Assembly: GCA_964592145.1 (NCBI GenBank)
Contig: CAZQBX010000006.1
Location: forward strand, 32,789-96,788
Length of the DNA stretch: 64,000 bases
Origin: an uncultured Ignavibacteria bacterium
Lineage (GTDB): Bacteria; Zixibacteria; MSB-5A5; CAIYYT01
Direction of reading: 5' to 3'
Of the stretch, positions 10,483-20,194 are shown piece after piece. The notes under the pieces are model-generated. The model did no database searches, had not been told where the DNA came from, and saw only the letters and a program-made list of their open reading frames with translations. Position 1 is the stretch's first letter; the number at the start of each line of letters is the position of its first letter. The translations under genes and the position numbers were made by a program.

Positions 10483-10591
10483 CGGCCTACCCTCCACATG
10501 ATGACCGAAATGCAATAGCTACACGATTCGCGGCTGTCGGATTAATACGTCAATAAAATATACCATTATCTCCCCTTTGTCAAGCTCCGTA

Positions 10592-10617
10592 GGGTGGGTC
10601 TCCTTGCCGAAATCTCG
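10592..10617. repeat. Type 3 short intergenic repeat (second copy)
   Basis: ~22/25 identity to 9197-9221. It is followed by gacggagaccc, which can pair with gggtctcc. Confidence 0.45.
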
Positions 10618-10695
10618 TGACCTTTCAAGTCGCTCTGACGGAGACCCGCCGCAACCACTATCTGTCACCCATGTCCCTGGTCCAAGCCCTGCGAA

Positions 10696-10750
10696 ATTCC
10701 CCCCTCGAGAGGGGTGGCTTCCCGACGAAGTCGGGAAGACGGGGTGTGTC
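10696..10750. repeat. Structured intergenic repeat, type 1 (copy A)
   Basis: attcccccctcgagagggg (6-bp hairpin) + cttcccgac-gaa-gtcgggaag (9-bp hairpin) + gacggggtgtgtc. Confidence 0.6.
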
Positions 10751-10811
10751 TTTCATGAGCTTCAAGAATCACAGCGCTCTACTGTGGGTTCGACTTCAGC
10801 CGAACAACCCC

Positions 10812-11879
10812 CTAATACTCCTTCAACTTCTCCTGCCCGCTCAAGTATCGCACTCCCGCCGCCGCCAACGCTTCCATCTCAAACTCGCCGCCCACGACAA
10901 TCACCTTGCCGAGGAATCCGATATACTTGCTGATCTCATCAACCAATCTCTGCGATTTCGCCATCCCGCCCGTCAAGACAATCGCCTCATACTTGCCGCG
11001 CAGTACCACCGCCGCCTGCCCGATCTCCTTGGCAACCTGATACGCCATCGCGTTGAAATACAACAGCGCCTTCTCGTCGCCGGCGCGGATCATCCTCTCG
11101 CACTCGCGTAGATCCGCCGCACCGATATATGCCACCAGCCCCGACTTGCGTGACAGCTTGTCGAGCATCTCTTTTTCTGTGAACTTGCCCGAGAAGCACA
11201 ACTTCACCAGCGGTCCCACTGGAAGCGCTCCCGCTCGATCAGGCGAAAACGGCCCCATCCCCAACAGCGCATCATTGACATCGACCACGCGGCCGCCCTC
11301 CAGTGCCGCTACCGACACCCCACCGCCCATGTGCGCGCAGACGTAGTTGACCTCTTCGAGCTTCTTGCCGATCTTCGCGGCCTCCCGACGGCACACTTCC
11401 TTGATATTCAACGCATGCACCCGGCACTTGCGTTCGATCTCCGGGATACCCGACACCCTCGCGATGTCGGTAAAATTGTCGACCGTGATCGGATCGGAAA
11501 TGAAGCACGGTACACCGAGCTTCTGCCCGAAGTGATGCGCAATGATTGCCCCCAGATTCGAGGCATGATTCGAGTACTTCATCGTCTGTAAATCAGACAG
11601 CATCTGCTCACTGATTGCATACGACCCGCCAGTGAGCGGTTTGACCGGCGCCCCGCGGCCGACCACGGCCGCAATCTGCTTCAAGTCGATCTTCGTCGAG
11701 TCCAGCCATTCATTGATTGCCGTCAACCGGAAATCCAGTGAGTCGGCGACATTGTCGAATTGCGCGAGATCGTGGGCATCGTGCCGGATGCCTTCTTCCG
11801 CGACTTTCTTTTCCCCATCGAACACCGCAACTTTCGTCGATGTCGACCCGGGATTGATGATGAGAAGGTAGTTGGGCAT
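10812..11879 (-). CDS. buk: Butyrate kinase (acetate/butyrate kinase family)
   Basis: 355 aa with N-terminal LIINPGSTSTK and the typical butyrate kinase length. It sits downstream of iorAB on the same strand. Confidence 0.85.
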   Translation of the reverse strand: MPNYLLIINPGSTSTKVAVFDGEKKVAEEGIRHDAHDLAQFDNVADSLDFRLTAINEWLDSTKIDLKQIAAVVGRGAPVKPLTGGSYAISEQMLSDLQTMKYSNHASNLGAIIAHHFGQKLGVPCFISDPITVDNFTDIARVSGIPEIERKCRVHALNIKEVCRREAAKIGKKLEEVNYVCAHMGGGVSVAALEGGRVVDVNDALLGMGPFSPDRAGALPVGPLVKLCFSGKFTEKEMLDKLSRKSGLVAYIGAADLRECERMIRAGDEKALLYFNAMAYQVAKEIGQAAVVLRGKYEAIVLTGGMAKSQRLVDEISKYIGFLGKVIVVGGEFEMEALAAAGVRYLSGQEKLKEY

Positions 11880-11974
11880 ATGTTCGTCCTCTATTACTTA
11901 GCTGGTCCGTACGCCCGATTCGCAACGAAGCGTCGAACCCGACAATAGACAATGCTATTTCTCAACACGGCTTC

Positions 11975-12076
11975 ATTCCCCTCTTGAGAGGGATGGCTCG
12001 GACGCCCGAAGGATGAGGGCGAACGAGACGGGGTGTGTTTCCCACTCTCCCCTGGCGAGACGGGTAGGGGTGAGGG
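11975..12076. repeat. Type 1 repeat (copy B) followed directly by a type 2 repeat, between iorB and buk
   Basis: Type 1 portion 11975-12038: attcccctcttgagaggg...ctcggacgcccgaaggatgagggcgaacgag...gacggggtgtgt. Type 2 portion 12039-12076: ttcccactctcccctggcgagacgggtaggggtgagggc. Confidence 0.6.
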
Positions 12077-12078
12077 CT

Positions 12079-12681
12079 TTACTTCGCCACTACTCCCAAA
12101 TGAATCCCCCGCCCTCGTGCAAACGCCTCCAAATTCACCGCGACGAACTTCTCCTTCACCAGCGACTTGATCACATCCACCCACAGCTTCTCTTCAAACG
12201 GAAGCAGATTCGCCAGCACACCGATCAGAATCGTATTAACCAGTCGCGGATTACCCAGCTCGCCCGCGATCTTGTCGGCTTCGACATCGATCACGTTATG
12301 TGCCTTGTTTTTCAAATCGGCAATCGCGTCGTCGGGGTAGTGGAACTCCTTCGATGAGGTCACAATCGCCGGCACCAACGTCGTATGCGACACAATAGCC
12401 GTTCCCGACTTCTTCATCCATCCGACAAAACGCAGCGCTTCCGCCTTCTCGAATCCCATCAAGATATCAACCTCGCCCTGCTGGATCGTCGGCGAATAAA
12501 CCTTCTTGCCGATCCGCACATGCGAGGTCACCACGCCGCCGCGCTGCGACATGCCGTGGATCTCCGACTTCTTGACATCCAGCCCGGCATGCATTGCGAC
12601 CTCGGAAATGATCTCGCTCGCCAGAAGCACGCCCTGCCCGCCGACACCGACAATGAGAATATTGTAAAACTGTTCAGACAT
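12079..12681 (-). CDS. iorB: Indolepyruvate:ferredoxin oxidoreductase subunit beta (2-oxoacid:Fd oxidoreductase gamma-like)
   Basis: 200 aa with N-terminal ILIVGVGGQGVLLAS, the POR gamma/IorB fold. It lies immediately downstream of iorA. Confidence 0.8.
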   Translation of the reverse strand: MSEQFYNILIVGVGGQGVLLASEIISEVAMHAGLDVKKSEIHGMSQRGGVVTSHVRIGKKVYSPTIQQGEVDILMGFEKAEALRFVGWMKKSGTAIVSHTTLVPAIVTSSKEFHYPDDAIADLKNKAHNVIDVEADKIAGELGNPRLVNTILIGVLANLLPFEEKLWVDVIKSLVKEKFVAVNLEAFARGRGIHLGVVAK

Positions 12682-12692
12682 TTCTTAACTCC

Positions 12693-14471
12693 TCACGCTT
12701 TCGCAAACTGGCTTTTGAGCAGGATCGCCTCGGTCGGGCAAATCTGCGCGCACAACGTGCAGCCCGTACAGAGTGTCTCATCGATGATCGCTTTCGGATG
12801 TCCGCGTTCGTTGGTCTCGTTGGCCGCCGCAATTGCCGGACAAGAAATCCTGAAGCACGCCGAACAGCCGTTGCACAATTCCAGATCGATCTGATACGGC
12901 TCATCCATGATCCGTTTCGGCATCAGCACGCAGGGCCGCGAGGTCAGTATCACCGACGGTCCCGGCGTTGCCATCTGGCGTTTCACACACTCAAGCGTCG
13001 CCTCGAAATCGTAGGCATCCACTTCCTCAAAATTCTTCACACCGAGCGCTTTCACGAGTTCGTGAATATCCGTCCGCCTGACCGGATCGCCCATCAGCGT
13101 CTTGCCGGTGCCGGGATGTTCCTGCCCGCCCGTCATCGCCGTCGCGCGATTGTCGAGAATGATCACCGTCACGTTCGACTGATTGTAAACCGCATCCAGC
13201 AGCCCCGTAATTCCCGAATGGAAAAACGTAGAGTCGCCGATCACCGCCACAGTTCCCGTCGCCGAGCCTTGCACCTTTTCCATTCCAATCGCATTGCCAA
13301 TCGACGCCCCCATGCAGATGCAAGTATCCAGCGCATTCAGCGGCTTGAGTACCCCGAGCGTGTAACAACCGATATCTCCCGTCACCGCAACACCAAGCTT
13401 CTTCAGCGCCATAAATGCCCCGCGATGCGGACACCCCGGACAAAGCACCGGTGGACGCGGGAATAAGTCTTCCTGCGTTATTTCCGGCACGACAATCTTG
13501 TCAATCAGGCCGGCTTCTTTCAATCCCCTAGCTACTCGCGAAGGCGACAACTCGCCCAGCGCCCCGAAATACTTCTTCCCCTCAACCTTGATTCCAGCGG
13601 CTTTGATCTGATCTTCATACACCGGTTCGAGCTCTTCCACAACGAGAGTGATATCATGTGCCGCGACAAACTGTCGGATACCATCCAATGGCAGCGGATA
13701 GCCAAATCCAATCTTGTAGTAGTCAAACTGCGGCGCCACTTCCTTGGCATATTGGTAAGCCACTCCGCCGGTGATGATCCCGACCTTGGAGCCGTTTGAT
13801 TCGATGTAGTTGAACGGTGTTTGCTCGGAGTACTTCGCGAGGTCGATGAGCCTTTGCTCGACAACAACGTGACGCACACGCGCATTCGAAGGTATCATCA
13901 CGTACTTTTCCGGATTCTTCACGAACTTGCGTTCCTGTGGATGCAGCGGCTCGATAACCTCGACAATTCCCATCGTGTGCGAAATCCGCGTCGTCATCCG
14001 CAACATCACCGGCGTATCGTAGCGCTCGGAAATCTCATAAGCCGCTACCAGCATGTCCTTCGATTCCTGCGAATCGGAAGGTTCCAGAAACGGGATATTC
14101 GCAAAGCGCGCGAAAATCCGGTTGTCCTGCTCATTCTGCGACGAGTGCATCTCGGGGTCGTCCGCCGACACCACCACGAACCCGCCGTTGACGCCGGTAT
14201 ACGCAAATGTCATCAGCGGATCGGCCGCGACATTCAGTCCGACATGCTTCATCGTTACCAGTGCTCGTGCTCCGCCAATCGAAGCCCCGATTCCCACTTC
14301 GAAGGCCACCTTCTCGTTCGGCGACCATTGCGAATAGACCGAGCGGTGACGTTCGGCCATAGTCTCGAGAATCTCAGTCGAGGGCGTCCCCGGATACCCG
14401 ACCGCCATCTTGACCCCGGCCTCATAAGCACCCCGCGCGACCGCTTCATTGCCCGACAAAAGTTGTTTCAT
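12693..14471 (-). CDS. iorA: Indolepyruvate:ferredoxin oxidoreductase subunit alpha
   Basis: 592 aa with a TPP-binding region (GDSTFFHSGITGLL) and two C-terminal 4Fe-4S ferredoxin motifs (CNGCSAC...CP and CTGCTLCAQICP). Confidence 0.85.
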   Translation of the reverse strand: MKQLLSGNEAVARGAYEAGVKMAVGYPGTPSTEILETMAERHRSVYSQWSPNEKVAFEVGIGASIGGARALVTMKHVGLNVAADPLMTFAYTGVNGGFVVVSADDPEMHSSQNEQDNRIFARFANIPFLEPSDSQESKDMLVAAYEISERYDTPVMLRMTTRISHTMGIVEVIEPLHPQERKFVKNPEKYVMIPSNARVRHVVVEQRLIDLAKYSEQTPFNYIESNGSKVGIITGGVAYQYAKEVAPQFDYYKIGFGYPLPLDGIRQFVAAHDITLVVEELEPVYEDQIKAAGIKVEGKKYFGALGELSPSRVARGLKEAGLIDKIVVPEITQEDLFPRPPVLCPGCPHRGAFMALKKLGVAVTGDIGCYTLGVLKPLNALDTCICMGASIGNAIGMEKVQGSATGTVAVIGDSTFFHSGITGLLDAVYNQSNVTVIILDNRATAMTGGQEHPGTGKTLMGDPVRRTDIHELVKALGVKNFEEVDAYDFEATLECVKRQMATPGPSVILTSRPCVLMPKRIMDEPYQIDLELCNGCSACFRISCPAIAAANETNERGHPKAIIDETLCTGCTLCAQICPTEAILLKSQFAKA

Positions 14472-14514
14472 CGTTATCTCGCTTTATGTAGAAAAGTACA
14501 AATCATCATCGTCG

Positions 14515-14583
14515 TATTCTCCCCTCGCCCGCTTGCGGGAGAAGGGCTGGGCCGAAGGTCCCGTCCTGCGGGAGGTGAGGGCC
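14515..14583. repeat. Type 2 repeat (copy in the iorA upstream region)
   Basis: tctcccctcgcccgcttgcgggagaagggc...ggaggtgagggc, sharing the tcccctc...gggag...ggtgagggc frame with 12039-12076 and 52761-52799. Confidence 0.5.
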
Positions 14584-14674
14584 TGATTCCTTGCCGCACA
14601 ACCACAATCAACACATCCCGTCTTCGAGTCTCATACTTCGACAAGAGGGGAATTGACTGACTGGACTTTCGTTG

Positions 14675-14736
14675 ATTCCCCTCTGGAGAGGGGTGTCCCG
14701 CGTCCGACGAAGGAGGGCGCGGGACGGGGTATGTCT
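14675..14736. repeat. Type 1 repeat (copy C)
   Basis: attcccctctggagagggg + gtcccgcg-tccgacgaaggagg-cgcgggac + ggggtatgt. The second stem has a different sequence from other copies but keeps the pairing. Confidence 0.6.
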
Positions 14737-14864
14737 GCGGGCCTCGCAGAAACAGCCCTGTCCGGTATCCACACCAATCCACCAACCTCGATGTGAATCT
14801 TTTCACAAATTAAGAGAATAACAGGATGAGAGCAACCCTTTTTTGCGGTGTTTTTAGGTGGTTC

Positions 14865-16849: not shown

Positions 16850-17353
16850 GTGAGAAAATCAGCAAAAAGAGCGGTCGTTTCTGTATTAGTCGGCGGCTTA
16901 CTGCAAGTGGTCATCAGTGGATGCTCAAGCCAATCACCAATTGAACCAACAACCAATGAGTTGTCCGCCACTACCACTGTCGTTGGCCGCCCGGCAGTTA
17001 CTCACCTTGAAGACGCAACCATCGGAACCCAGCAACACCAGGGTAGTAACGATGCCCGCACTGCCATCGAGATTGCCGGAGCCGACCTTCGTGATGACGC
17101 AACCGTTGTGATCGATTTCACCGGACTGATTGTCGGATTCGATGTTGAAGCCCAAACCATCCGTCTGATGGAAATGCAGGGTACATTCAAAACCTGGACC
17201 GGTTATGTAACGGAGGATTCTGAATTGCTGGGTCTTGAAGGCGAAGTCGTTCAATTGTCAGATTTTGGCGTCTGTAGCCAGGCAATTGTCCGCGGGGAAC
17301 AGACCGGAGAGGCCGAATTCACGATTAACTACTTGAGAATGAAGAACTTCTAA
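16850..17353 (+). CDS. Hypothetical lipoprotein
   Basis: GTG start with AGGAGGG 6 nt upstream. It has a signal peptide and a lipobox (VISGCSS). No family recognised. Confidence 0.5.
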   Translation: MRKSAKRAVVSVLVGGLLQVVISGCSSQSPIEPTTNELSATTTVVGRPAVTHLEDATIGTQQHQGSNDARTAIEIAGADLRDDATVVIDFTGLIVGFDVEAQTIRLMEMQGTFKTWTGYVTEDSELLGLEGEVVQLSDFGVCSQAIVRGEQTGEAEFTINYLRMKNF

Positions 17354-17422
17354 GAACTGGTGATGATCTGCTGACGGCGGCAATAATATGAGCCGGCAGC
17401 GACGTCGGCAGTGATCCCCATA

Positions 17423-17446
17423 CGGGCGCAGGAATTCCTGCGCCCG
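17423..17446. other. Perfect 24-bp palindrome cgggcgcaggaa|ttcctgcgcccg
   Basis: Exact dyad symmetry centred on GAATTC, 70 bp downstream of the stop of the lipoprotein gene at 16850..17353. No U-tract follows. Confidence 0.5.
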
Positions 17447-17500
17447 TTCCCATTGCGAGACGAAATTTATCGAATATTAGCAAGTTCTATGAAAAACTTG

Positions 17501-17529
17501 TTGACACGATTCATAACACTGCATTAATT
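17501..17529 (+). promoter_or_regulatory. Candidate sigma70-type promoter (TTGACA-17nt-TTAATT)
   Basis: Consensus -35 TTGACA at 17501-17506, a 17-nt spacer and a -10-like TTAATT at 17524-17529. It lies ~230 nt upstream of the DUF4398 lipoprotein gene. Confidence 0.35.
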
Positions 17530-17675
17530 CGCCCCTTGTTTGATATGGGATTGTGAAAGGATGCGCAAGCGTTGCTGACATGGAGCGCATCCAACGTGAT
17601 CTGATTGACAGTTCCGGATTGAAAAATCCGGGGGAAATGAAAACAATAAGTTAACTGAAGAAAACTGCCTCGTCA

Positions 17676-17719
17676 GGATGGGTGCAAGCTAAGACAGCTT
17701 TCGCGTATCCTTTTTTTTT
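17676..17719 (+). terminator. Intrinsic (rho-independent) terminator-like hairpin with a 9-T tract
   Basis: A 15-nt imperfect stem (ggatgggtgcaagct / agctttcgcgtatcc), loop aagac, then TTTTTTTTT at 17711-17719. It lies only ~38 nt upstream of the ATG at 17758. Confidence 0.55.
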
Positions 17720-17757
17720 AACCCATTTCAGTCGAGGCCAAGAAAGGAAGTACCACC

Positions 17758-18357
17758 ATGAAGAAGGTTTTGTTAGCCGTTATCGCTATCGCTCTAGTAG
17801 TGATCGCTGGCTGCAGCAAGCCGCCGGAAGCCGAAATGGCTGCCGCCCAAAGTGCTATCAACAACGCCAAAGCCGCCGAAGCCGAGCAGTACGCTCCGCA
17901 GGCTTTCCGTATGCTGTCCGATTCCCTCAATGGCGCCATGGCCATGAAGACCGAACAGGACAACAAGTTTGCTCTCTTCCGCAGCTATGGCGACTCCAAA
18001 GCCATGTTTGAGCGCGTCGCCACCATGTCGACCGACGTCATCAATCAGGCTAATGCCGAAAAGGAAAGAGTCAAACAGGAAGTCACCGGTATGATGGCGG
18101 AAACCAAGACTCTGCTTGACTCCGCGATGGTCCTGTTGGACAAAGCCCCCAAAGGCAAAGACAACAAGGCCGAATTGGAACTGATTAAGAACGACCTCAC
18201 CAATATTGGCTCCGAGTGGATGGTCGCCGAAGGCGACTTCAACGGCGGTAAGTACCTTGTCGCTCGTACCAAACTTGAATCAATCAAGTCGCGCATTGCC
18301 AGCATCACTGCTGAAATTTGCAAGGCGTACGAGGCCAAGGGCAAAAAGTGCATGTAG
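17758..18357 (+). CDS. DUF4398-like lipoprotein
   Basis: 199 aa with a lipoprotein signal (VIAGCSK) and an Ala-rich helical region (AKAAEAEQYAPQAF), the DUF4398 pattern. SD GAAAGGAAG. Confidence 0.6.
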   Translation: MKKVLLAVIAIALVVIAGCSKPPEAEMAAAQSAINNAKAAEAEQYAPQAFRMLSDSLNGAMAMKTEQDNKFALFRSYGDSKAMFERVATMSTDVINQANAEKERVKQEVTGMMAETKTLLDSAMVLLDKAPKGKDNKAELELIKNDLTNIGSEWMVAEGDFNGGKYLVARTKLESIKSRIASITAEICKAYEAKGKKCM

Positions 18358-18431
18358 CACTTAGCCGATAATAAAAGAGGCGTGTATAAGTTTGGGGGGA
18401 CAACGGTAACGCTGTCCCCCCAATCGATTTT

Positions 18432-19550
18432 TTGAATGCTAACGGTACATCCGTTGATTTGCGGGGATCAACAGTGCGCTACTTCAAACGAGCTACTCTT
18501 CTACTGATAGTTCTGTCTTCTCTGGTGTTTTTATTCGCCGGGTGTGAAGATCCTCCAGTCATTAACCTCGAGAACGCCCGTCAGGCATTGCGCCTTGCTG
18601 AAAGCGCCGGCGCCTTGCGTTATGCCGAAATTCTCTACCGTGATGCCGAACAACTCGTGAATACCGGCTGGATGGAAATGGCTCGCCAAAATGGCCGCCT
18701 GGCGCCGTTTCGCGACTATGAAAGTGCAGATTCGATTCTGGCAATGGCCTTGCGCCGTGCTAATGAAGCACGTCAGCATGCGATTGACAGCATCGCAACT
18801 GTGCAGACAGCCTCGCGTTCCGACCTGACCGAACTCCATAACGAACTGAATGAGTGGAATGAAGCCCTCAACGGTTCACTGGTCAATTTCAATGTTCGCG
18901 ACGACTGGCAGCGCGCCCGCCTGAATCTCGACATGGCCGAGAAACTGATGGCCAACGGCGAGTTCGACGAAGCGCGCGTTTCAATGATCAAAGCGCGCAA
19001 CCTGCTTAAGCAGGTCGGCGCGGCTCTGGAGTCGCATCAGGAGGACGAATCTCGACAGATCAGCGTCTGGCGTCGTTGGGTCTCACAAACTCTGGAACAA
19101 TCCCGTGCGGCTAATAGTTATGCTGTTATCGTGGACAAAGTCGCTCATAAGACGTATCTGGTCAAGGGTGGAAAACTCGTCCACACCTACGACTCCGAAC
19201 TGGGATACAATTCCGCACGCCAGAAACTGTTTTCCGGCGATGCCGCCACCCCGGAGGGAATGTATCGGGTTGTCAAAGAGAATAATAGAAGTAAATTCTA
19301 CCGGGCGCTGCTGATCGATTATCCCAACAGCGCAGACAAGAAACGCTTCGCCGATAACAAGCGCAAAGGCGTCATTTCCAATCGCGCCCGTATTGGCGGT
19401 TGGATCGAGATTCACGGCGAAGGTGGAAAAAACCGCGATTGGACCGAAGGTTGTGTTGCCTTGACCAATAAAGAAATGGATCATCTGATGAAGTTCGTCT
19501 CTGTCGGGACTCCGGTAACTATTGTCAGAAAGTCGGATCAATGGCCGTAA
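18432..19550 (+). CDS. Lipoprotein with N-terminal DUF4398-like domain and C-terminal L,D-transpeptidase (YkuD) catalytic domain
   Basis: 372 aa with lipobox LFAGCED. The C-terminus carries HGEGG...TEGCVAL, the L,D-transpeptidase His/Cys catalytic motif. Confidence 0.7.
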   Translation: MNANGTSVDLRGSTVRYFKRATLLLIVLSSLVFLFAGCEDPPVINLENARQALRLAESAGALRYAEILYRDAEQLVNTGWMEMARQNGRLAPFRDYESADSILAMALRRANEARQHAIDSIATVQTASRSDLTELHNELNEWNEALNGSLVNFNVRDDWQRARLNLDMAEKLMANGEFDEARVSMIKARNLLKQVGAALESHQEDESRQISVWRRWVSQTLEQSRAANSYAVIVDKVAHKTYLVKGGKLVHTYDSELGYNSARQKLFSGDAATPEGMYRVVKENNRSKFYRALLIDYPNSADKKRFADNKRKGVISNRARIGGWIEIHGEGGKNRDWTEGCVALTNKEMDHLMKFVSVGTPVTIVRKSDQWP

Positions 19551-20194
19551 GAAAAATCCTCTTGATTGTCATCTTGCCGGTATTTACCGTGGCCGCTATC
19601 GTGCTCTTCCTGATCGCTCTCAATCGGGAGAAACCGGAAGTCATCGCGGAAGGCTACTCCGTGGATACGCTTCTGACCGAATTGCCGCAGGACGAAAAGA
19701 AAGCTCAAAAAGAGTTGTCGGCCGCCCGCAAAGCCCTCGACAAACTCACTCCGACAAAACCATACATTGTCATCGATACCCACGCCAATCGGATTTACAT
19801 GCGGACCAAAGATAAGATTATCCTCGACGCTCGCTGTTCGACCGGCTCCGGGGGCGAATTGATCGACTCCGTCACCGGCCGCAGATGGATTTTCAACACG
19901 CCGCATGGTGTTTTCAAGATCCGCCGCAAAGTGACCGAACCTTGGTGGCGCAAACCCGATTGGGCGTTTATTGAAGAGGGAGAAGAGGTCCCTAAAAAGG
20001 AATCAGACCGCCTCGACCCCAATGTGATGGGCGACTATGCGCTGGACTTCGGCGACGGCTTTTTCATTCACGGCACAATCTATGAACGGCTTCTGGGAGT
20101 AAATGTCACCCACGGCTGCGTTCGCCTTGGCAGTGAAGATCTGGATTCACTCTATAAGCAGACGCCGATCGGAACCTATGTCTACATTTTCTAA
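19541..20194 (+). CDS. L,D-transpeptidase (YkuD family), membrane-anchored
   Basis: 217 aa with an N-terminal TM segment and the classic HGTIYERLLGVNVTHGCVRL active-site motif. Confidence 0.8.
   Translation: MAVRKILLIVILPVFTVAAIVLFLIALNREKPEVIAEGYSVDTLLTELPQDEKKAQKELSAARKALDKLTPTKPYIVIDTHANRIYMRTKDKIILDARCSTGSGGELIDSVTGRRWIFNTPHGVFKIRRKVTEPWWRKPDWAFIEEGEEVPKKESDRLDPNVMGDYALDFGDGFFIHGTIYERLLGVNVTHGCVRLGSEDLDSLYKQTPIGTYVYIF

Follow-up and report, generated by a model that had tools for sequence, protein, structure and literature searches.

Genetic context of the leader

The window is the whole 64,000-nt stretch of Zixibacteria DNA that was analysed, and the feature under study lies on its plus strand between an upstream gene (16850–17353) and an envelope operon. 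The operon begins with a lipoprotein gene (17758–18357, plus strand) carrying a weak Pfam match to DUF4398, followed on the same strand by a DUF4398-YkuD L,D-transpeptidase gene (18432–19550) and a YkuD L,D-transpeptidase gene (19541–20194). The Pfam matches, one weak to DUF4398 and two to YkuD, agree with the lipoprotein/L,D-transpeptidase cluster named in the original prediction, and the order of lipoprotein gene and then transpeptidase gene is retained in distant families. The lipoprotein is helical, has about 199 residues and often ends in a C-terminal lysine. A sequence search of the PDB returned no relative with an E-value below 0.39, and the titles and abstract openings of the papers found for DUF4398 contain nothing on the function of the domain or on the leader. 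A lipoprotein together with L,D-transpeptidases is what one would expect of a system that covalently links the outer membrane to peptidoglycan, and the operon appears to rank among the most strongly expressed envelope operons of these bacteria.

Directly after the stop codon of the upstream gene, folding yields two hairpins on the plus strand (17356–17447): one at 17356–17412 (−25.4 kcal/mol) and, at 17422–17447, a perfect palindrome of 11 bp (−23.8 kcal/mol). Each is unique in the genome by blastn, so neither belongs to the repeat family at 10590–14740, and together they probably end the upstream transcript separately from the leader. Weak Rfam matches to CRISPR-DR20 and tpke11 are located on the unrelated palindrome at 17422–17447 and are regarded as chance.

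Promoter and transcription

The leader is preceded by a plus-strand promoter (17501–17529) with a −35 element TTGACA (17501–17506), a 17-nt spacer and a −10 element TTAATT (17524–17529), at the coordinates originally predicted. The −35 element is unvaried in 16/16 aligned relatives, while the −10 element occurs as TTTATT, TAGATT or TATATT at an unchanged position. The spacing from promoter to ATG is 250–265 nt in all 20 close leaders, and 16 of 23 distant loci have TTGAC 253–265 nt ahead of the end of the ATG. The stretch immediately 5' of the promoter is A-rich.

A strict consensus scan missed both this promoter and the terminator described below, because its rules demand an A at the second position of the −10 element and an unbroken stem. 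The sole promoter-like site that it returned is a weak internal one, TTGAAA-17-AACAAT (17619–17647), which is not conserved. The feature is taken to exceed chance because it is conserved across genomes; the scan is not the basis of this judgement.

Fourteen RNA runs contain 0.12–0.25 of the sampled words, and four of these, metatranscriptome runs from four studies, were compared as contigs. In 4/4 runs the RNA contig (17594–17995, 17554–17838, 17572–17846 and 17547–17973) begins 3' of the promoter, bridges the terminator and enters the lipoprotein gene, assembled contigs being blind to 3' ends and transcript levels. The region 17300–17546 is uncovered by the contigs of these four runs. The region from about 17536 onwards is transcribed, and the contig starts (17547–17594), just downstream of the promoter, accord with the predicted transcription start near 17535, which probably lies at about 17536. 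The leader had been estimated at about 170 nt; counted from that start, it measures about 184 nt up to the last T of the tract and about 222 nt up to the ATG.

The terminator-like hairpin and its tether

Folding and covariation define a terminator-like hairpin, T, followed by nine T (17675–17719, plus strand), so that the predicted hairpin and 9-T tract directly 5' of the Shine-Dalgarno (SD) sequence and ATG are indeed present. The hairpin (17675–17711) is 37 nt long and has 16 stacked positions, including two conserved mismatches (G.G and C.U); its folding energy is −16.2 kcal/mol for 17676–17711 and −16.9 kcal/mol with the A17675–U17711 pair. The T tract (17711–17719) ends 38 nt 5' of the ATG at 17758. 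Judged by its sequence, the element is built like an intrinsic (Rho-independent) terminator: a U tract comes directly after a stable stem-loop that contains G+C. It lies between a used, conserved promoter and a start codon, the position characteristic of an attenuator. The terminator belongs to the 5' leader of the operon, and between it and the ATG there is neither room for, nor a trace of, a second promoter.

Class-wide, the stems of T have 13–15 bp and energies of −12 to −24 kcal/mol. A stem-adjacent run of at least 6 U is found in 30/32 aligned leaders from seven families (runs of 6–10 U). In the lower stem, GGATGGGTG/CGCGTATCC, the sequence itself is conserved as well as the pairing. L155 and L144, two of the aligned leaders, retain the hairpin but have no U tract, as do L164 and L162, so the role of the hairpin is not confined to termination. 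Hairpins with a T tract occur 3' of 153/1502 long ORFs in the same genome, versus 40/1502 for mid-gene positions.

In read-through RNA, the terminator is predicted to be clamped by a helix, P0, formed by GCCTCG (17667–17672) and CGAGGC (17733–17738, just 5' of the SD), both on the plus strand; the pairing is possible in read-through RNA only. The P0 duplex is present in 20/20 leaders of the two closest genera despite differing sequences, and in 11/12 representatives it is matched by at most 9/100 shuffles. In other families the loop of T pairs downstream instead, again with differing sequences, and in 12/20 of these other leaders at most 10/100 shuffles do as well. The tether ends next to an extended SD, AGAAAGGAAG (17741–17750), which with the ATG (17758–17760) forms the start region of the lipoprotein gene (17741–17760, plus strand), as seen from alignments and from its match to the anti-SD. 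The SD is unvaried in alignments A2 and A3, and in 32/32 leaders no other site near the ATG matches the anti-SD as strongly. Partition-function estimates of SD sequestration by the foot of T and the U tract in 10 leaders were inconsistent, with faulty SD detection for several of them and no result for L158.

These features also fit a structural element of the 5' UTR, in which T and its tether would serve the full-length mRNA through stability, ribosome loading on the SD or a protein site, the U tract would be a single-stranded U-rich site and termination would be incidental or weak. The persistence of the hairpin in the four leaders lacking a U tract, the covariation of a tether that can form in read-through RNA only, the read-through in 4/4 RNA contigs and the conservation of the lower stem beyond pairing all speak for this explanation. 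It is nevertheless somewhat unlikely: 6–10 U directly follow a stem of −12 to −24 kcal/mol in 30/32 leaders of seven families, such sites serve as terminators in the same genome, and a terminator that did harm upstream of so highly expressed a gene would be expected to have degenerated.

Distribution and covariation of the leader

A DNA search located the array of promoter, leader, hairpin and U tract ahead of the same gene, in one copy per genome, in 16/41 related genomes. Exact-pattern scans of the class, of genome contigs (13 of 37 hits true) and of metagenome contigs (7 of 45 hits true) reached the two closest genera only; the apparent restriction to two genera was an artefact of too strict a pattern, as a covariance model of the terminator-to-ATG module, R1, revealed a wider spread. 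Searched against 151 genomes of the class, R1 matched 38/151 in one count and 32/151 in another, and the positive genomes belong to seven families (f1, f5, f7, f12, f15, f18 and f19). The matches nearly always lie directly 5' of the gene for the DUF4398 lipoprotein of about 199 residues, with an L,D-transpeptidase gene coming next. Among 23 loci outside the two closest genera (21 from other families), 21 are found directly before the start of the orthologous lipoprotein gene.

The lipoprotein gene keeps the leader even where the upstream genes differ from one family to another, so the leader does not represent the 3' end of an upstream gene. The original prediction would have been refuted by a hairpin that merely ends a long 3' UTR of the upstream gene, here the gene at 16850–17353, which is on the same strand with its stop codon 320 nt away. 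Its two strong hairpins directly after the stop, the conserved promoter in between, the lack of an RNA contig over 17300–17546 and the constancy of the leader beside changing upstream genes make this reading extremely improbable.

The original prediction looked to covariation in homologous leaders, and T and a second hairpin, P2, do covary. P2 (17614–17631, plus strand), in which CCGGATT (17614–17620) pairs with AATCCGG (17625–17631), is conserved class-wide, 38–45 nt 5' of the terminator; purine-rich GGA motifs, among them GGGGGAA (17630–17636), lie on both sides of it. Across 32 sequences, two-sided changes occur in 7/8 pairs of P2 and 9/15 pairs of T, together 16/23. In a MAFFT alignment built without reference to structure, 84.6% of the P2 and T cells are paired, versus 32–53% when the partner is slid. 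The covariation score of P2 plus T is 0.411 versus 0.265 and was reached in 0/500 shuffles. As the sequences are related, the shuffle statistics given here overstate significance.

The 5' domain is more variable. Hairpin P1 (17559–17592, plus strand), in which GGATGCGC (17559–17566) pairs with GCGCATCC (17585–17592), was obtained by RNAalifold on alignment A2 and is limited to the family of the window; its foot overlaps the purine motif GAAAGGA (17555–17561). RNAalifold retains seven P1 pairs on A2, in which 8 sequences have AU and 4 have UA at columns 61–97, while 10 have UA and 1 has AU at columns 62–96. The 5' domain is not alignable between families, and conserved junction nucleotides are not visible in it.

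Possible leader peptide, antiterminator and riboswitch

A GGGATT+GTG motif (17547–17555, plus strand) resembles an SD, spacer and start codon and recurs as GGGATT[G/A]TG in 16/16 relatives. The frame that it opens (17553–17654) is not conserved. The 24-codon leader ORF of the original prediction does exist as a frame, but only as the tail of this 33-codon frame starting at GTG 17553. Attenuation by a ribosome translating the small ORF could draw on the SD-like GGAGG or GGG and GTG motif, unvaried in the closest genera, and on the replacement of the starting GTG by ATG in the second genus. The frame, though, ranges from 8 to 45 codons among relatives, its stop codon may lie as early as the P1 loop or as late as the T stem, and 1-nt indels change the reading frame (the variants in L111 and L112, read by eye, are frame-shifted). 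In other families no such ORF is found, the SD-like motifs being without a start codon or followed by an immediate stop (L155). A leader peptide, raised in the original prediction, is thus hardly credible.

A conserved antiterminator was not found when the 5' arm of T was compared with the upstream leader: z ≤ −1.9 was reached in only 6/32 leaders. The best partner of this arm lies in the P2 region in 12/32 leaders, in registers that vary by clade. An exchange of the P1 and T arms, an alternative fold of the leader in the window, was rejected, as it is lost in sister clades, where an A-U pair of P1 is flipped while T is fixed. Pairing of the 3' arm of P2 with the 5' arm of T is suggestive in some clades, as is clade-specific pairing of the 5' end with T, and both are without statistical support.

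With its order of promoter, structured leader, terminator and gene, the locus has a riboswitch-like layout, and a 5' domain acting as an aptamer could have a closing helix that competes with the terminator. Some clades pair the 5' end with the 5' arm of T (CCAUU-GAUGG plus GGAGG-CCUCC in L009–L012). This pairing is restricted to certain clades, the 5' domain does not align across families, conserved junction nucleotides are not visible, and a conserved aptamer core was not found. No Rfam 15 family matched the leader at E ≤ 10 or 7 distant loci at E ≤ 0.1, which counts against the known riboswitch or T-box that had been suggested. A small-molecule riboswitch is therefore very improbable.

GGA motifs and CsrA

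The aligned leaders contain 231 GGA motifs (7.2 per leader) versus 163 ± 10.6 in shuffles. In the window, GGA starts at 17548, 17559, 17582, 17616, 17633, 17676 and 17746, the last within the SD, an arrangement expected of a CsrA-regulated RNA, with several GGA motifs and one overlapping the SD. The GGA of P2 and T are in stems, and those of M1, M2 and the SD are single-stranded. In 27/32 leaders there are additional SD-like sites that lack a start codon. CsrA is encoded in the genome of the window (G000) and in 144/151 genomes of the class, with a CsrA gene at contig C8:43795–43947, and a CsrA-FliW pair is present. A phyletic correlation with CsrA does not discriminate, because CsrA is nearly universal in the class.

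Several GGA per leader, with one in the SD, are shared with CsrA/RsmA-regulated leaders and CsrB/RsmZ sponges (PMC4347634). The CsrA consensus from SELEX is RUACARGGAUGU, and typical high-affinity sites present GGA in loops (PMC4347634). The 5' arm of T reads (C)RGGAUGUGUG in most families and has GGAUGU in common with this consensus; unlike in typical CsrA targets, the GGA of T and P2 are base-paired at the stem feet and not looped (PMC4347634). Control of an intrinsic terminator by CsrA is not among the mechanisms described in the portion of PMC4347634 used here.

The GGA content also raises the prospect of a small RNA gene, whose abundant GGA-rich product of about 184 nt would act in trans, for instance by sequestering CsrA in the manner of CsrB and RsmZ, while the operon mRNA would arise from leaky read-through as with GraL. 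Constitutive leader termination that yields small RNAs has a precedent in the part of PMC2836576 drawn on here. The strong promoter and terminator, about seven GGA per leader and the CsrA-FliW pair suit such a gene. Organisms with FliW are, however, thought not to need small RNA antagonists of CsrA. The element is always single-copy per genome and always joined to the same gene, and its constant spacing to the ATG and the pre-SD tether favour a role in cis, so that a small RNA gene is quite unlikely.

A model for the leader

The leader is conserved, P2, T and the tether covary, transcription runs from about 17536, and RNA is read through into the operon. The reading that best accounts for this, with a probability of roughly 55%, is that T is a functional premature terminator in a conserved structured leader of a Zixibacteria lipoprotein/L,D-transpeptidase operon, that is, an attenuator that is probably modulated. 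Termination at T, its function and its modulation are put forward as parts of the model.

A strong sigma-70-type promoter would start the RNA about 220 nt 5' of the ATG. The leader would then fold into a variable 5' hairpin region followed by the conserved P2, flanked by purine-rich GGA or SD-like motifs, after which the intrinsic-terminator hairpin with its U tract would form. RNA polymerase would read through this terminator for expression of the operon; as it must pass the terminator to do so, the leader would be a transcription attenuator. Premature termination would set, and probably modulate, the amount of operon mRNA. In read-through RNA the terminator hairpin would be tied to the pre-SD stretch, leaving the long SD exposed; the tie would be a flanking helix in the family of the window and a loop-to-downstream pairing in other families.

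As both a conserved RNA antiterminator and an aptamer core are absent, the modulator is more likely a trans-acting factor at the GGA or SD-like motifs, with CsrA or the 30S subunit as candidates. In a more specific version, CsrA or free 30S subunits on the GGA motifs of the P2 flanks and the 5' arm of T would choose between termination and read-through. This version is unlikely; it would couple a Braun-lipoprotein-like tether and its dedicated L,D-transpeptidases to the translational or motility state, and the terminated RNA could titrate CsrA.

Relation to known systems and significance

In Escherichia coli, the ampC leader contains a terminator hairpin thought to sense ribosome availability, and the ompA 5' UTR carries protective hairpins. 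Like these, the Zixibacteria leader places hairpins in front of envelope-related, highly expressed genes; unlike them, and with no sequence relation to either, it is phylum-wide and its tether joins the terminator to the pre-SD region.

The TRAP/trp, PyrR, Bgl/Sac RAT and cold-shock-protein antitermination systems likewise have an intrinsic terminator in a structured leader, between promoter and start codon (PMC4347634). As in protein-modulated attenuators, there is no aptamer-like core, and repeated short purine motifs are possible protein sites (PMC4347634). In contrast to those described in PMC4347634, there is no demonstrable mutually exclusive antiterminator and no gene for a cognate binding protein in the operon, and the GGA/SD-like motifs differ from the TRAP, PyrR and RAT sites given in that source. 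The E. coli greA leader, which produces GraL, also combines a strong promoter with termination of most transcripts inside the leader, the remainder being mRNA (PMC2836576); for the Zixibacteria leader such termination is proposed. GraL RNAs have 40–60 nt and their termination is reported to be constitutive (PMC2836576), whereas the leader here has about 184 nt, is structured and is conserved across families.

A literature search for Zixibacteria riboswitches found nothing. To our knowledge, no Zixibacteria have been cultured, and regulatory RNAs have not been described from the phylum. The leader is a new candidate for a gene-control RNA across much of this uncultured phylum. It may be an example of an intrinsic terminator that is sensed by a protein or the ribosome and works without an RNA antiterminator. 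If its termination is regulated, the leader would offer a way to study how the envelope is adjusted in an uncultured diderm lineage.

Layout of the locus

The intergenic region 17354-17757 separates a small lipoprotein-like ORF without a Pfam match (16850-17353) from a same-strand gene cluster, which encodes a 199-aa lipoprotein (17758-18357), a DUF4398-YkuD protein (18432-19550) and a YkuD protein (19541-20194). It contains a promoter with the -35 hexamer TTGACA (17501-06), a 17-nt spacer and TTAATT (17524-29), the terminator-like hairpin T (17675-17711, with two internal mismatches), a tract of nine T (17711-19) and the Shine-Dalgarno (SD) sequence AGAAAGGAAG (17741-50) in front of the ATG at 17758; all of these had been named in the original prediction and are present in the sequence. 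The folding energy of T is -16.2 kcal/mol (17676-17711), or -16.9 kcal/mol including the outer A-U pair. A consensus scan of the region listed neither promoter nor terminator, since its criteria admit neither a -10 hexamer of this kind nor a stem with interruptions. The scan is uninformative, and the case for the reality of both signals therefore rests on cross-genome comparison.

Two further hairpins lie upstream of the promoter. The first (17356-17412, -25.4 kcal/mol) is located directly 3' of the upstream stop codon, and the second (17422-17447, -23.8 kcal/mol) is a perfect 26-nt palindrome without a U tract. Both are single-copy in the genome and kept in the eight closest relatives, and they probably constitute a U-less terminator that ends the transcript of the upstream gene. 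That T itself serves as terminator of the upstream gene is the least probable reading of all; the upstream genes vary from family to family.

Conservation of the leader

A DNA search detected the leader region in 16 of 41 related genomes: the window's own genome, all 12 others of its genus g1 and three of the four of genus g2. In an alignment of these close relatives, spanning the -35 to the ATG, the -35 is invariant, while the -10 is variable (TTAATT, TTTATT, TAGATT, TATATT) at a fixed position. The alignment also keeps the motif GGGATT[G/A]TG, the leader hairpins P1 (17559-92) and P2 (17614-31), T with its U tract, and the SD. RNAalifold retains P1, where compensatory changes occur, and T. 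The distance from the -35-type TTGAC to the end of the ATG is 250-264 nt across 20 close leaders.

Exact-pattern scans of class genomes, public genome contigs and metagenome contigs gave true matches in g1 and g2 only (sorted afterwards, 13 of 37 in genome contigs and 7 of 45 in metagenome contigs). Two further genera contain paralogous and orthologous lipoprotein genes with the same order of hairpin, U tract and SD in diverged sequence. A covariance model, R1, covering 16 nt before the terminator through the ATG, matches 38 of the 151 genomes sampled from the class at E <= 0.01; with the window's own genome left out, the matches fall in families f1 (17/20), f15 (4/4), f18 (4/17), f19 (4/14), f7 (7/24) and f5 (1/6). 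In a second sample of 151 genomes, all from the same class, 32 match at E <= 0.001, adding family f12.

At 21 of 23 loci inspected outside g1 and g2 (21 of the 23 from other families), the R1 match ends at the ATG of an orthologous lipoprotein with the N-terminus ~M[LF]KRV..L..ALALLA..GCSKPPEAEMQ. The exceptions are L154, probably a chance match, and L146, a second copy that precedes the gene by ~240 nt. The downstream gene is of the DUF4398-YkuD type in at least 8 of 12 loci, as judged by the GDGATPEG motif. TTGAC lies 253-265 nt from the ATG end in 16 of the 23 distant loci and 244-274 nt in three more, and is absent in four. Spacing and co-occurrence thus tie promoter, P2, T, U tract, SD and the length of the leader to this gene, and the element is a conserved 5' leader of a lipoprotein/L,D-transpeptidase operon.

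In two f18 genomes the functional leader or gene is preceded, at a distance of ~240 nt, by a second terminator module (L144, G226:C72:2200-2290; L146, G223). The extra module of L144 comprises a hairpin, a U tract and a pseudo-SD with ATG, and in both genomes the arrangement looks like a tandem duplication. Genus g5 encodes the closest lipoprotein orthologue (43-47% identity; L115, G016:C31, and L116, G018:C65), behind long leaders that have a TTGAC-type promoter but show no evident hairpin-U tract. G016 also has a more diverged paralogue (L119) with the full module; the g5 leader is lost or remodelled on one paralogue.

Covarying structure of the leader RNA

Covariation in homologous loci, proposed as a check in the original prediction, is found for both P2 and T. 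In a MAFFT alignment of the P2-to-T stretch of 32 non-redundant leaders from across the class, not fitted to any structure, 84.6% of the cells in the 8 P2 and 15 T pairs can pair, compared with 32-53% after a shift of the 3' partner by 1-3 columns. Both sides change in 16 of the 23 pairs (P2 7/8, T 9/15). The covariation score of 0.411, against 0.265 +/- 0.014 in shuffles, is reached by none of 500 shuffles. Since the sequences are related, all of these values overstate independence; P2 nevertheless occurs in clearly distinct forms (CCGGAUUG/CAAUCCGG, CCGAAUUG/CAAUUCGG, GCUGGAU/AUCCGGC and GUUGGGUG/CACUCAAC). Class-wide, T has a 13-15-bp stem of -12 to -24 kcal/mol, the base of which keeps its sequence and contains many G.U pairs (in the typical case GGAUGUGUG with CGCGUAUCC); a G.G mismatch in the window's family becomes U.G or U-A elsewhere.

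A U tract of 6-10 residues follows the stable stem in 30 of the 32 leaders, representing seven families; the exceptions are L144 and L155, in which it is degenerate or absent. Two R1-negative families keep the hairpin without a U tract (L164 in f9, L162 in f7), and L163 (f8) has the hairpin and U8. The hairpin is thus more conserved than the terminator tail.

A helix termed P0 (17667-72 with 17733-38) encloses the terminator and U tract, and can form only in RNA extending past the terminator. Its duplex is present in 20 of 20 leaders of g1 and g2 with differing sequences (CCUCG/CGAGG, CCUCCGC/GCGGGG, UCCUG/CAGGA), and is better than shuffles in 11 of 12 representatives. Outside these genera P0 is replaced by pairing of the T loop with a stretch 3' of the U tract (GCCGGA/UCCGG, GCCGG/CCGGC, GGCCGA/UCGGCC, CGGGGC/GGUCCC, UAUCGGU/UACCGAU), which in 12 of 20 leaders is equalled by at most 10 of 100 shuffles; two f15 members have a local hairpin before the SD instead. 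A covarying tether between T and the pre-SD region thus recurs in the read-through RNA of different lineages. Together with the lineages that keep the hairpin without a U tract, it indicates that the hairpin also serves the full-length mRNA. The same two observations favour the main rival to attenuation, a structural UTR element, which is possible yet rather unlikely.

Transcription and proposed attenuation

Of 24 sequencing runs matching 17300-18500, 14 are recorded as RNA, and four of these, from four studies and all assembled contigs, were examined. Their RNA contigs span 17594-17995, 17554-17838, 17572-17846 and 17547-17973, and none reaches into 17300-17546, which fits a transcription start near 17536. 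The absence of the upstream gene argues, though not formally, against DNA carry-over. A promoter-like TTGAAA-17-AACAAT inside the leader (17619-17647), overlapping the P2 loop, is not kept in sister clades, lies downstream of the contig starts and is probably due to chance.

The RNA is continuous from the leader across the terminator into the coding region, in contigs that carry no 3' ends, strand or abundance. Such continuity would have to reflect leaky read-through if the leader were a trans-acting small RNA, a doubtful reading. RNA contigs of the lipoprotein gene are present in several metatranscriptomes, and the gene behind the leader is evidently strongly transcribed. In this genome, a hairpin with a T tract follows 153 of 1502 long ORFs, compared with 40 of 1502 mid-gene positions and 101 of 1502 in antisense of the same regions, so the host polymerase should respond to signals of this type. 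Because 6-10 U residues follow a stable stem in nearly all aligned leaders, in front of a strongly transcribed gene, the capacity to terminate appears selected rather than accidentally tolerated. The leader is accordingly read as a transcription attenuator, with a probability of about 0.55.

Candidate modes of control

The original prediction considered a riboswitch or T-box-like element, for which an Rfam scan was suggested. No Rfam 15 family matches the window leader or seven distant loci, and a riboswitch is very unlikely. Attenuation by a leader peptide is more improbable still: the proposed 24-codon ORF belongs to a longer frame (GTG 17553 to 17654) whose length varies between 8 and 45 codons in relatives, 1-nt indels shift it in two metagenomic variants (read by eye), and other families lack a comparable ORF.

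In the minimum-energy fold of the whole window leader the P1 arms pair with the T arms. This swap was rejected as an antiterminator, as sister clades flip a P1 A-U pair while T is unchanged. When duplex partners for the T 5' arm were sought in the leader upstream of it, the best duplex reached z <= -1.9 relative to shuffles in only 6 of 32 leaders; in 12 of 32 the best partner maps to the P2 region, without a fixed register, which is suggestive of an alternative P2/T pairing without establishing it.

The true SD is found in 32 of 32 leaders. At least one extra strong SD-like site, at least 68 nt upstream of T, occurs in 27 of 32, usually just 5' of P2 (e.g., GAAAGGAGGUG) and without a usable start codon, and another lies just 3' of P2 in 14 of 32. 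GGA is enriched (231 versus 163 +/- 10.6 in shuffles; 7.2 per leader), and the T 5' arm reads (C)RGGAUGUGUG in most families. It has GGAUGU in common with the CsrA SELEX consensus, given as RUACARGGAUGU in PMC4347634. The window's genome encodes homologues of CsrA (C8:43795-43947) and FliW (C8:46280-46633), 2.3 kb apart, which make up a CsrA-FliW pair of the flagellar type known from Bacillus and Thermotoga. With CsrA genes in 144 of the 151 class genomes sampled, the protein is on hand as a candidate binder, and its distribution does not discriminate. As a CsrA target, the leader has the expected number of motifs; those in P2 and T lie in stems rather than in loops, and others, among them the one in the SD, are single-stranded.

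The lack of a conserved antiterminator or aptamer core, together with the SD-like GGA motifs, makes a trans-acting factor a more likely modulator than a metabolite. Those on either side of P2 and within the T 5' arm may be the binding sites of such a factor, and CsrA or the 30S subunit would be concrete candidates for any modulation of T. The layout is shared with protein-modulated attenuators and leader terminators (trp/TRAP, PyrR, Bgl/Sac and the greA leader GraL), whereas the Zixibacteria leader has no demonstrable antiterminator.

Significance of the controlled operon

The element is undescribed in Rfam 15 and in the literature found on Zixibacteria riboswitches or DUF4398, and is a new candidate cis-regulatory leader RNA of Zixibacteria. 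The ~199-aa lipoprotein has a lipobox (..AGCS) and a weak Pfam match to DUF4398; a search for relatives of solved structure found none. Its tail is lysine-rich in most copies, with K as last residue in 8 of 12 distant orthologues, and the window's copy ends in ..KGKKCM. One or two YkuD L,D-transpeptidases are always encoded downstream. A lysine-rich lipoprotein with L,D-transpeptidases is what a Braun-lipoprotein-like tether would be expected to comprise, and by this analogy the operon looks like a counterpart of Braun's lipoprotein and its attaching enzymes, which raises the biological interest of the leader that controls it.
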